Below are positions 26,408-32,612 of a DNA stretch of 36,109 nt, piece by piece. The stretch lies in the IMG/VR virus record IMGVR_UViG_641736116_000027. One strand, given 5' to 3'. The notes below the pieces were generated by a model. That model had not been told where the DNA came from, did no database searches, and was given only the letters and a program-made list of their open reading frames with translations. Position numbers and translations under genes: made by a program. This DNA comes from a virus (Duplodnaviria > Heunggongvirae > Uroviricota > Caudoviricetes). How positions within the stretch are numbered: the first letter of the stretch is position 1; each line of letters opens with the position of its first letter.

Positions 26408-27105
26408 TGCAGGATATCCGGCAGGAAACACTGAATGAATGCACCCGTGCGGAGCAGTCGGCCAGCGTGGTGCTCTGGGAAATCGATCTGACAGAGGTCG
26501 GTGGAGAACGTTATTTTTTCTGTAATGAGCAGAACGAAAAAGGTGAGCCGGTCACCTGGCAGGGGCGACAGTATCAGCCGTATCCCATTCAGGGGAGTGG
26601 TTTTGAACTGAATGGCAAAGGCACCAGTACGCGCCCCACGCTGACGGTTTCTAACCTGTACGGTATGGTCACCGGGATGGCGGAAGATCTGCAGAGTCTG
26701 GTCGGCGGAACGGTGGTCCGGCGTAAGGTTTACGCCCGTTTTCTGGATGCGGTGAACTTCGTCAACGGAAACAGTGACGCCGATCCGGAGCAGGAGGTGA
26801 TCAGCCGCTGGCGCATTGAGCAGTGCAGCGAACTGAGCGCGGTGAGTGCCTCTTTTGTACTGTCCACGCCGACGGAAACGGACGGCGCTGTTTTTCCGGG
26901 ACGTATCATGCTGGCCAACACCTGCACCTGGACCTATCGCGGCGATGAGTGCGGTTATCACGGTCCGGCGGTCGCGGATGAATATGACCAGCCAACGTCC
27001 GATATCACGAAGGATAAATGCAGCAAATGCCTGAGCGGTTGTAAGTTCCGCAATAACGTCGGCAACTTTGGCGGCTTCCTTTCCATTAACAAACTTTCGC
27101 AGTAA
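26407..27105 (+). CDS. L: minor tail protein L (232 aa)
   Basis: Matches lambda gpL as recalled, including the C-terminal Cys-rich region. Confidence 0.9.
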   Translation: MQDIRQETLNECTRAEQSASVVLWEIDLTEVGGERYFFCNEQNEKGEPVTWQGRQYQPYPIQGSGFELNGKGTSTRPTLTVSNLYGMVTGMAEDLQSLVGGTVVRRKVYARFLDAVNFVNGNSDADPEQEVISRWRIEQCSELSAVSASFVLSTPTETDGAVFPGRIMLANTCTWTYRGDECGYHGPAVADEYDQPTSDITKDKCSKCLSGCKFRNNVGNFGGFLSINKLSQ

Positions 27106-27110
27106 ATCCC

Positions 27111-27854
27111 ATGACACAGACAGAATCAGCGATTCTGGCGCACGCCCGGCGATGTGCGCCAGCGGAGTCGTGCGGCTTCGTGGTAAGCACGCCGGAGGGG
27201 GAAAGATATTTCCCCTGCGTGAATATCTCCGGTGAGCCGGAGGCGTATTTCCGTATGTCGCCGGAAGACTGGCTGCAGGCAGAAATGCAGGGTGAGATTG
27301 TGGCGCTGGTCCACAGCCACCCCGGTGGTCTGCCCTGGCTGAGTGAGGCCGACCGGCGGCTGCAGGTGCAGAGTGATTTGCCGTGGTGGCTGGTCTGCCG
27401 GGGGACGATTCATAAGTTCCGCTGTGTGCCGCATCTCACCGGGCGGCGCTTTGAGCACGGGGTGACGGACTGTTACACGCTGTTCCGGGATGCTTATCAT
27501 CTGGCGGGGATTGAGATGCCGGATTTTCATCGCGAGGATGACTGGTGGCGTCACGGTCAGAATCTCTATCTGGATAATCTGGAGGCCACAGGGCTGTATC
27601 AGGTGCCGTTGTCATCAGCACAACCGGGCGATGTGCTGCTGTGCTGTTTTGGTTCATCGGTGCCGAATCATGCCGCCATTTACTGTGGTGATGGCGAGCT
27701 GCTGCACCATATTCCTGAACAACTGAGCAAACGAGAGAGGTATACCGACAAATGGCAGCGACGCACACACTCCCTCTGGCGTCACCGGGCATGGCGCGCA
27801 TCTGCCTTTACGGGGATTTGCAACGATTTGGCCGCCGCATCGACCTTCGTGTGA
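27111..27854 (+). CDS. K: tail tip assembly protein K with JAB/MPN-like and NlpC/P60-like motifs (247 aa from first ATG)
   Basis: Has an HSHPGG...SEAD JAMM-like motif and a downstream Cys-containing segment. The ORF starts 6 bp after the L stop. The classical lambda annotation starts at the internal Met, which falls at about 27255 here. Confidence 0.85.
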   Translation: MTQTESAILAHARRCAPAESCGFVVSTPEGERYFPCVNISGEPEAYFRMSPEDWLQAEMQGEIVALVHSHPGGLPWLSEADRRLQVQSDLPWWLVCRGTIHKFRCVPHLTGRRFEHGVTDCYTLFRDAYHLAGIEMPDFHREDDWWRHGQNLYLDNLEATGLYQVPLSSAQPGDVLLCCFGSSVPNHAAIYCGDGELLHHIPEQLSKRERYTDKWQRRTHSLWRHRAWRASAFTGICNDLAAASTFV

Positions 27855-28423
27855 AAACGGGGGCTGAAGCCATCCGCGCACTGGCCACACAGCTCCCGGT
27901 GTTTCGTCAGAAGCTGAGCGACGGCTGGTATCAGGTACGGATTACCGGGCGGGACGTCAGCACGTCCGGGTTAACGGCGCAGTTACATGAGACTCTGCCT
28001 GATGGCGCTGTGATTCATATTGTTCCCAGAGTCGCCGGGGCCAAGTCAGGTGGCGTATTCCAGATTGTCCTGGGGGCTGCCGCCATTGCCGGATCATTCT
28101 TTACCGCCGGAGCCACCCTTGCAGCATGGGGGGCAGCCATTGGGGCCGGTGGTATGACCGGCATCCTGTTTTCTCTCGGTGCCAGTATGGTGCTCGGTGG
28201 TGTGGCGCAGATGCTGGCACCGAAAGCCAGAACTCCCCGTACACAGACAACGGATAACGGCAAACAGAACACCTATTTCTCCTCACTGGATAACATGGTT
28301 GCCCAGGGCAATGTTCTGCCGGTTCTGTACGGTGAAATGCGCGTGGGGTCACGCGTGGTTTCTCAAGAGATCAGCACGGCAGACGAAGGGGACGGTGGTC
28401 AGGTTGTGGTGATTGGTCGCTGA
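27752..28423 (+). CDS. I: tail assembly protein I (223 aa)
   Basis: Matches lambda gpI as recalled. Overlaps the K 3' end. Confidence 0.9.
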   Translation: MAATHTLPLASPGMARICLYGDLQRFGRRIDLRVKTGAEAIRALATQLPVFRQKLSDGWYQVRITGRDVSTSGLTAQLHETLPDGAVIHIVPRVAGAKSGGVFQIVLGAAAIAGSFFTAGATLAAWGAAIGAGGMTGILFSLGASMVLGGVAQMLAPKARTPRTQTTDNGKQNTYFSSLDNMVAQGNVLPVLYGEMRVGSRVVSQEISTADEGDGGQVVVIGR

Positions 28424-28441
28424 TGCAAAATGTTTTATGTG

Positions 28442-28468
28442 AAACCGCCTCCGGGCGGTTTTATCGTT
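28442..28468 (+). promoter_or_regulatory. hairpin plus T-run in the I-J intergenic region
   Basis: AAACCGCC-TCCG-GGCGGTTT followed by TATCGTTT. It sits inside the tail operon, so possibly an attenuator or RNA-stability element. Confidence 0.3.
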
Positions 28469-28480
28469 TATGGAGCATGA

Positions 28481-31882
<3,402 letters not shown>

Positions 31883-31898
31883 ATTTTATAACCCAGAA

Positions 31899-31927
31899 CG
31901 GGCGTCAGAAATGACGCCTTTTTTATT
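31899..31927 (+). terminator. intrinsic terminator downstream of J
   Basis: GGCGTCA-GAAA-TGACGCC followed by TTTTTTATT. Confidence 0.7.
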
Positions 31928-31948
31928 GCAGAAAAGCGAGAGGTAATT

Positions 31949-32548
31949 ATGCGTAAACTTTATGCCGCCATTTTGTCCGCAGCCATTTGTCTGGCCGTAT
32001 CCGGTGCGCCTGCATGGGCATCTGAACATCAGTCCACGCTGAGCGCGGGGTATCTTCATGCCCGGACCAACGTTCCCGGCAGTGATGATCTGAACGGGAT
32101 TAACGTGAAATACCGTTATGAGTTTACGGATACGCTGGGGCTGGTGACGTCATTCAGCTATGCAGGAGACAAGAATCGCCAGCTGACCCGTTACAGCGAT
32201 ACCCGCTGGCATGAAGATTCCGTGCGTAACCGCTGGTTCAGCGTGATGGCGGGGCCGTCTGTGCGCGTGAATGAATGGTTCAGCGCGTATGCGATGGCGG
32301 GTATGGCTTACAGCCGTGTTTCGACTTTTTCCGGGGATTACCTTCGCGTAACTGACAACAAGGGGAAAACGCACGATGTGCTGACCGGAAGTGATGACGG
32401 TCGCCACAGCAACACGTCTCTGGCGTGGGGGGCTGGCGTGCAGTTTAACCCGACCGAATCCGTGGCCATTGATATTGCTTATGAAGGTTCTGGCAGTGGT
32501 GACTGGCGCACTGACGGGTTCATCGTGGGTGTTGGTTATAAATTCTGA
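31949..32548 (+). CDS. lom: Lom outer-membrane protein (Ail/Lom family), 199 aa
   Basis: Signal peptide MRKLYAAILSAAICLAVSGAPAWA and a beta-barrel pattern ending in the aromatic residue F. Lambda Lom-like. Confidence 0.95.
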   Translation: MRKLYAAILSAAICLAVSGAPAWASEHQSTLSAGYLHARTNVPGSDDLNGINVKYRYEFTDTLGLVTSFSYAGDKNRQLTRYSDTRWHEDSVRNRWFSVMAGPSVRVNEWFSAYAMAGMAYSRVSTFSGDYLRVTDNKGKTHDVLTGSDDGRHSNTSLAWGAGVQFNPTESVAIDIAYEGSGSGDWRTDGFIVGVGYKF

Positions 32549-32575
32549 TTAGCCAGGTAACACAGTGTTATGACA

Positions 32576-32602
32576 GCCCGCCGGTTCAGGCGGGCTTTTT
32601 TG
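32576..32602 (+). terminator. intrinsic terminator downstream of lom
   Basis: GCCCGCC-GGTTCA-GGCGGGC followed by TTTTTTG. Confidence 0.7.
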
Positions 32603-32612
32603 TGGGGTGAAT

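Follow-up and report, generated by a model that had tools for sequence, protein, structure and literature searches.

The stem-loop and T-run that follow the tail-tip gene J appear to be a terminator of the J module itself, present with or without the lom gene, with the next module beginning just past its TTTTTTATT tract. In the stretch of 36,109 nt of Caudoviricetes DNA analyzed here (IMGVR_UViG_641736116_000027; hereafter, the window), which represents a lambda-like prophage, lom lies between this site (T1) and a second stem-loop with a T-run (T2). Our preferred explanation, to which we assign a probability of about 0.7 as a whole, is that T1 and T2 are genuine Rho-independent terminators of differing histories: T1 would be the backbone terminator of the J module in this family of lambda-like phages, independent of lom, and lom together with T2 would form a promoterless cassette lying between the T-tract of T1 and the ribosome-binding site (RBS) of the side tail fibre gene stf. 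The features on which this explanation draws are collected in Table 1.

Table 1. Positions and supporting evidence for the features of the window that bear on lom, its flanking terminators and the late operon.
Feature	Position	Strand	Basis
Q, late-gene antiterminator gene	8677..9366	+	PF06323 Phage_antiter_Q, E = 1.4e-94, full length
pR'-like promoter TTGCAA-17-TATATT, putative start of the late operon	9350-9378	+	consensus scan only
tR'-like terminators	9434-9460, 9548-9564	+	consensus/hairpin scan; 9434-9460 is the most stable of the late region
J, tail tip / host specificity protein, 1132 aa	28484..31882	+	six gpJ Pfam domains, each E < 1e-33
T1, probable intrinsic terminator closing the J module	stem-loop 31900-31919, T-tract 31919-31927	+	fold, covariation, presence in lom-less phages
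lom leader GCAGAAAAGCGAGAGGTAATT, left end of the cassette	31928..31948	+	Shine-Dalgarno GAGAGG at 31938-31943
lom, Ail/Lom family outer-membrane beta-barrel, 199 aa	31949..32548	+	PF06316, 1-199 of 199, E = 5e-120
T2, probable intrinsic terminator belonging to the lom cassette and forming its right end	stem-loop 32575-32596, T-tract 32596-32601	+	fold, conservation
stf, side tail fibre gene with its RBS	32604..35528	+	PF08400 phage_tail_N, E = 4e-72
tfa, tail fibre assembly gene	35528..36109, to window end	+	PF02413 Caudo_TAP, E = 3e-45

A first-pass annotation of this DNA had placed lom between two strong intrinsic terminators, and both hairpin and T-run sites are indeed found where it put them. 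T1 (GGGCGTCA-GAAA-TGACGCCT, followed by the TTTTTTATT tract ending at 31927) starts 17 nt downstream of the J stop codon (TGA, 31880-31882) and has a stem of eight pairs, seven Watson-Crick and one G-U with five G-C pairs among them, closed by a GNRA loop of 4 nt. T2 (AGCCCGCC-GGTTCA-GGCGGGCT, then T6 ending at 32601; tract TTTTTTGT) starts 26 nt downstream of the lom stop codon (32546-32548), and seven of the eight pairs in its stem are G-C, with a loop of 6 nt. The T1 fold, computed on a 41-nt segment, reaches −14.7 kcal/mol (z = −4.0; 0 of 200 shuffles fold as well) and the T2 fold −18.6 kcal/mol (z = −3.3; 1 of 200). At both sites, seven of the eight nucleotides scored after the stem are T, as expected of the T-tract of an intrinsic terminator, and both have the other attributes of this class of signals, namely, a G+C-rich stem of ~5-12 bp, a loop of 3-8 nt and a location on the sense strand just past a stop codon.

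When the + strand was scanned uniformly between position 9300 and the window end and hairpins followed by T-runs were ranked by stability, the tR'-like site at 9434-9460 (−17.8 kcal/mol) came before T2 (−17.6) and T1 (−13.0), and T1 and T2 took the top two ranks in a terminator scan of 27000-36109. The number of terminator-like sites in that region, 10 against 7.8 +/- 2.6 in shuffles, is not above chance; T1 and T2 stand out for their quality and placement rather than for the number of sites. An Rfam search of 31700-32750 returned sub-threshold chance matches only, with no family covering T1 or T2.

The evolution of the two hairpins was traced in about 150 IMG/VR loci that encode a window-type Lom, a lambda-type Lom or a third class of Lom (about 61% identical to lambda Lom), together with phage lambda itself. 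Each of the 31 distinct J-lom spacers contains a hairpin followed by the T-tract, which does not vary among alleles, unlike the stem of T1, whose sequence drifts. Among these spacers, 92% of the T1 stem cells are paired, compared to 37-57% when the 3' partner is slid. Compensatory changes on both sides of the stem occur in three of the eight pairs (A-U/G-C 14:14, C-G/U-A 20:7 and A-U/U-A 23:5), and the covariation score was matched by none of 500 shuffles; the stem variants include GGGCGTCA/TGACGCC, GGGCACCA/TGGTGCC, GGGCGCCA/TGGCGCC and GGGCACCT/AGGTGCC. Fold energies of 27 of the 31 T1 variants lie between −9.7 and −16.7 kcal/mol, and the four weaker folds (−6.6 to −7.5) belong to two spacers interrupted by IS4 and to two singletons whose stems contain mismatches. 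T2 is nearly unchanged in all three lom classes and absent from lom-less phages; across its 30 variants, changes mostly fall in the loop or are stem transitions after which a G-U pair remains, with three singleton disruptions and no double changes. The pairing and compensatory changes in T1, along with the sequence conservation of T2, suggest that both sites evolve under constraint and that, in the case of T1, it is the structure that is demonstrably constrained.

Between the J stop and T1, we also observed a motif, TTATAACCC (TTAT(A/T)AACCC; 31886-31894, + strand), that almost every J allele retains, whether or not lom is present; the short stretch separating it from the hairpin is variable. 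It contains a −10-like hexamer, TATAAC, that matches at 5 of 6 positions, with no −35. Pairing of this motif with the lom Shine-Dalgarno (SD) sequence was considered and rejected; only 3-5 scattered pairs can form, and the motif is kept in lom-less phages too.

The lom-less relatives are the most informative with respect to the ownership of T1. A BLAST search with the segment spanning the 3' end of lom, T2 and the 5' end of stf yielded phages in which the homology starts exactly at the T-tract. In 4A7 (NC_049946) and PhiR63_1 (PV340573), the annotated J gene is followed directly by a side tail fibre gene, with neither lom nor T2, and the order is J stop, TTTTATAACCC, a T1-type hairpin GGGTGCCAGAAATGGCGCC, TTTTTTATT and then TGTGGAGTGAATATG of stf. 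The left half of this junction corresponds to the J-T1 region of the window through TTTTTTATT, and the right half to the sequence past the T-run of T2. These phages share with the window the 3' end of J, the TTATAACCC motif, the T1-type hairpin, TTTTTTATT and the RBS and start of stf, but the 5' end of their stf is a somewhat diverged allele (86-89% identity). In a census of the T1-type motif in IMG/VR, covering 122 sites in the first 120 loci listed, T1 is followed by the lom leader at 104 sites and directly by the stf RBS at 16; the two remaining sites have a different stf leader and an IS66-like element inside the lom leader, respectively.

Because lom-less relatives keep T1, this hairpin is best regarded as the backbone terminator of J. 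The terminator bracket, which the first-pass annotation had treated as a property of lom, therefore does not hold as such: T1 is equally well formed in relatives that lack lom, and only T2 travels with the gene. The phages without lom may have lost it by deletion instead of representing the ancestral state, and the independence of T1 from lom holds either way. The same census marks the position just past TTTTTTATT as a recurrent module junction.

Several individual loci add detail on this junction. In a further lom-less locus in IMG/VR (L267), TTTTTTATT precedes another leader, 51 nt long, and a divergent allele of stf, with the junction again at the end of the T-tract. Three other IMG/VR loci (L123-L125) carry a third-class lom without T2 and stf downstream, followed instead by other sequence with an extended −10-like TGGTATAAT; lom therefore occurs in at least one other genomic context. 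The lom flanks are shared by at least four allele classes, a pattern that would be expected if alleles were swapped by recombination in conserved terminator-proximal flanks.

Insertion sequences have also been acquired here. In Lambda_4B5 (L156, LR595863; 40-60, 1470-1500), an IS4 element with an annotated InsG transposase interrupts the T1 hairpin, whose palindromic core CACCAGAAATGGTG, equivalent to window positions 31903-31916, is duplicated by the insertion. The same IS4 junction recurs upstream of lom in two other IMG/VR loci (L027 and L135), with both orientations of the element represented, which identifies T1 as a recurrent IS4 target. Reportedly, IS4 prefers targets composed of an A-tract, a palindrome and a T-tract, such as the pheST attenuator. 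The IS66-like element (IMG/VR locus L235; end GTAAGCGTCG...) breaks the lom leader right after GCAGAAAAGCG, about 11 nt in, and contains small ORFs typical of IS66 accessory proteins; the same contig carries an intact second J-T1-lom unit.

The lom gene itself is a clear member of its family. The protein matches PF06316 over its full length with 398.9 bits, against a gathering cut-off of 23, and its N-terminus resembles a signal peptide. The cassette consists of the 21-nt SD leader, the ORF, a 26-nt spacer, the T2 hairpin and the T-run (GCAGAAAAG...lom...T2 hairpin...TTTTT), fitted between the T-tract of T1 and the stf RBS, and its leader is invariant across window-type lom alleles. The RBS of stf (GGGGTG, 32604-32609) adjoins the T-tract of T2, after which the sequence reads GTGGGGTGAAT and then the stf ATG at 32614; this start aligns with that of lambda orf-401. 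The G+C content of lom is 54-55%, compared with 46-55% at the 3' end of J and 52-62% at the 5' end of stf, and is thus unremarkable relative to its neighbours, so that a base composition signature of horizontal acquisition was rejected.

Phage lambda (NC_001416, 18903-19650) shows the same J-lom-stf (orf-401) gene order as the window, with hairpins followed by T-runs likewise present 17 nt past the J stop (18920-18935) and after lom (19612-19633), and with a matching layout from the T-tract to the SD. The 3' end of lambda lom, T2 and the start of stf are 95% identical to the window at the DNA level, whereas the Lom proteins (206 aa in lambda vs 199 aa) are only 46% identical. At the position of T1, lambda differs from the window in having an unrelated 6-bp hairpin, CGTCCG-GGAA-CGGGCG, followed by TTTTATT; it also lacks the TTATAACCC motif and has TATTAT/TATAAA where the window has TATTGC. 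The equivalents of T1 and T2 are unannotated in the GenBank and RefSeq lambda records.

Textbook morons of lambdoid phages have a promoter of their own and an atypical base composition (Juhala et al. 2000; Cumby et al. 2012, PMC3594210). The window lom resembles the lambdoid morons (PMC3594210) in being an optional gene at a fixed junction between conserved tail genes, with a factor-independent terminator at its 3' side and a product of the host-fitness or virulence type. It differs in that it has no detectable promoter, with only 21 nt before the ATG, and a G+C content of about 55%, and in that the upstream terminator is outside the element. The designation of lom as a moron thus stands in part: lom is an optional add-on, present or absent at one junction, that carries its own terminator, T2, but neither a promoter nor an atypical composition could be detected.

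The first-pass annotation had located a putative lom promoter in the ~20 bp between the first terminator and the start of lom or, alternatively, in a position overlapping that terminator. The gap measures 21 nt and is the lom leader, which already includes the SD GAGAGG, and it offers no room for a sigma-70 promoter, which needs about 29 bp plus about 7 to the transcription start. Given the 21-nt gap and the SD within it, any sigma-70 promoter of lom would have to overlap T1, and the candidate hexamers there score 3/6 or worse, which disfavours this second placement as well. No sigma-70-like site with a score of at least 9/12 was found on the + strand in the 650 nt upstream of lom; a promoter scan of 9 kb yielded two sites against 6.3 expected, neither near lom; and the consensus scan upstream of lom in lambda found none. 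These scans cover matches to the sigma-70 consensus; a weak, activator-dependent or alternative-sigma promoter would escape them.

A relaxed scan of 31300-31950 (+ strand; at least 8/12; spacers of 15-19; extended −10 allowed), complemented by a listing of hexamers by hand, yielded nothing that counts as evidence for a promoter. The best relaxed match, GTATCA-15-TATAAC, scores 8/12, has a bad spacer and would transcribe the whole of T1; an extended −10-like sequence within J (TGaAAAAAT, 31848-31856) is not conserved in other J alleles; and a leaderless lom mRNA, considered separately and rejected, would need a −10-like hexamer 7 nt upstream of the ATG, where there is none. The hexamer in the spacer between the T-tract and the RBS matches the −10 consensus at 5/6 positions in lambda (TATTAT/TATAAA), compared to 3/6 in the window (TATTGC, with no T at position 6), and is TATTGA in the third class; no −35 precedes lom in any allele. 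In the literature available to us, no mapped transcription start of lom was found, nor any promoter named for the gene. With no consensus site, no room in the leader and an unremarkable G+C content, a canonical promoter of its own for lom is not supported, and the sequence evidence leans toward lom transcripts arising only by read-through from J.

The genomic setting of lom is that of a lambda-type late operon. Apart from Q, the window holds O, P and nin-region genes, and from Nu1 at 13181 the morphogenetic genes through J, lom, stf and tfa are all on the + strand, as in a Q-dependent late operon. With the Q-antiterminated late operon of lambda, the window shares Q, the pR'-like promoter, the tR'-like terminators and several terminator-like hairpins within a ~26-kb co-oriented operon, with no difference of substance; read-through of T1 and T2 would, by extension, apply to the window phage as well. 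Further terminator-like hairpins with T-runs are found on the + strand at 17474-17495, 19089-19106, 20153-20170 (after the capsid-gene region) and 28443-28460 (directly upstream of the J start). Altogether, about six terminator-like hairpins other than T1 and T2 lie inside the operon, upstream of essential genes, and these are either read through by Q-modified polymerase or serve as stabilisers of RNA 3' ends. Q-modified polymerase of lambda reads through downstream terminators. With essential tail genes beyond the other hairpins, and stf/tfa beyond T1 and T2, late transcription has to pass every one of these sites; T1 and T2 can therefore stop only polymerase that Q has not modified, as in the repressed prophage. 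The proposal that lom is insulated from the late operon is therefore untenable for lytic growth, given the presence of Q, the location of stf and tfa past both terminators and the other hairpins inside the operon.

Elsewhere in the window, an IS3-family insertion sequence (3378-4591, + strand) with an rve-domain transposase ORF and an ALIL frameshift pseudoknot (RF01497, 3659-3775) lies just downstream of the replication gene P. A large serine recombinase gene (5252-6379, + strand; Resolvase, Recombinase and Zn-ribbon domains) is located on the nin-region side, between this element and the NinB, RusA and Q genes, an unusual place for such a gene. In addition, the tfa-like ORF contains a full-length match to Rfam RF02111 (IS009 RNA; 229 bits, 35871-36069, + strand).

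Expression data for lambda bear on these considerations. In array experiments (Osterhout et al. 2007, Table S1), the log2 change at 60 min after UV was +6.0 for lom, +5.4 for J, +5.3 for orf-401 and +6.6 for orf-314, compared to +0.1 for cI and +0.7 for rexA; induction thus raises lom about 64-fold, in parallel with J and stf. In the uninduced lysogen, lom gave no signal above background in that study, whose authors remarked that little is known about a lom promoter (Osterhout et al. 2007). By contrast, Reeve & Shaw 1979 and Barondess & Beckwith 1990 are cited in later papers as having reported expression of lom in lysogens, and the arrays of Chen et al. 2005 also report it. Such reports imply some Q-independent start and so count against our preferred explanation. 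A small RNA, 24B_1, encoded downstream of lom (PMC4426718), was set aside, coming as it does from the short-tailed phage Phi24B, in which the context of lom is different.

Several rival explanations have to be weighed against a J-module terminator followed by a promoterless lom cassette. The one closest to the first-pass annotation holds that lom is a self-contained moron, shielded by terminators on both sides and transcribed constitutively in the lysogen from its own sigma-70 promoter overlapping T1 or its T-tract. The reports of lysogenic lom expression in lambda speak for it, as do the 5/6 matches to the −10 consensus between the T-tract and the RBS of lambda and the expression of Phi24B lom independently of induction, although the genomic context of the latter differs. 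These points are offset by the poorer hexamers of the window and third-class alleles with no −35 in any allele, by scans that are empty upstream of lom in both the window and lambda, with relaxed matches of at best 8/12 and off-optimal spacers, by the mere 21 nt that the cassette contributes before the ATG along with the existence of T1 in the absence of lom, and by the failure of Osterhout et al. to detect lom in the lysogen. We consider this explanation unlikely, at roughly one chance in five.

The two other alternatives concern the hairpins themselves. They might function mainly as stabilisers of RNA 3' ends or barriers to processing within the late transcript, guarding the J and lom segments against 3' exonucleases and setting the relative levels of mRNAs rather than terminating transcription. 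Similar hairpins do follow other late genes, for example, at 20153-20170 after the capsid-gene region and at 28443-28460 before J, and, with Q-modified polymerase passing such sites, only a post-transcriptional role is possible in lytic growth. However, the long, uninterrupted T-tracts that abut both stems would be unneeded by a mere stabiliser, and the T-tract is the part that stays invariant while the stem drifts; this role, which is compatible with termination and not exclusive of it, seems improbable as the main one. That T1 and T2 are chance inverted repeats without function could be argued from the site count in 27000-36109, which does not exceed that in shuffles (10 vs 7.8). Yet the z-scores of −4.0 and −3.3, the placement right after stop codons, the compensatory changes in T1, the structural equivalent with an unrelated stem in lambda and the retention of T2 among lom alleles that are 46% identical in protein sequence all go against this, and covariation and conservation refute the chance-repeat reading for practical purposes.

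Under the preferred explanation, by which T1 belongs to the J module and lom with T2 is a promoterless cassette, a simple model of lom transcription can be proposed. During lytic growth, Q-modified polymerase starting at pR' would pass T1, T2 and the remaining late-operon hairpins unhindered, and lom would be carried along on the late transcript between J and stf/tfa, as the arrays show for lambda. In the repressed prophage, unmodified polymerase would be stopped at T1 when arriving from upstream or at T2 when leaving lom, so that the two terminators would shield lom, as well as stf/tfa, from stray transcription. Any Lom that a lysogen produces would then be due to leak-through at T1, or to a weak start without a consensus match that overlaps T1, rather than to a canonical promoter in the gap. 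The efficiency of termination at T1 and T2 and their passage by Q-modified polymerase are inferred from the sequence and from lambda.

A more speculative extension of this model is that lom represents a promoterless moron, a cassette that spreads by entering the T-tract of a terminator already in place, with a second terminator of its own. Leak-through at T1, or a non-canonical start within it, would set a low level of Lom in the lysogen, T1 would act as a fixed attenuator with the block lifted by Q in lytic growth, and, in the tail regions of lambdoid phages, the T-tracts of terminators would be favoured sites of module exchange and of IS4 insertion. We regard this generalization as tentative and doubtful in its entirety.

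The arrangement described here is ordinary, very common and already known in kind. The segment 31880-32620 matches 4709 of 5426 complete E. coli genomes, at up to 14 places per genome, and 213 phage records, and there are copies in O157:H7 strains that are identical to the window. The J-lom-stf unit is accordingly among the commonest prophage segments in E. coli, and the present analysis has little import beyond annotation: T1 is to be annotated as a terminator of the J module and not as a part of lom, a promoter of its own should not be assumed for lom, and terminators in a Q-controlled late operon do not mark units that are insulated in lytic growth. Should it prove true that lysogenic Lom depends on leak-through at T1, the textbook definition of a moron would require a small amendment, and such leak-through would bear on the contribution of Lom as an adhesin from the uninduced prophages of EHEC.
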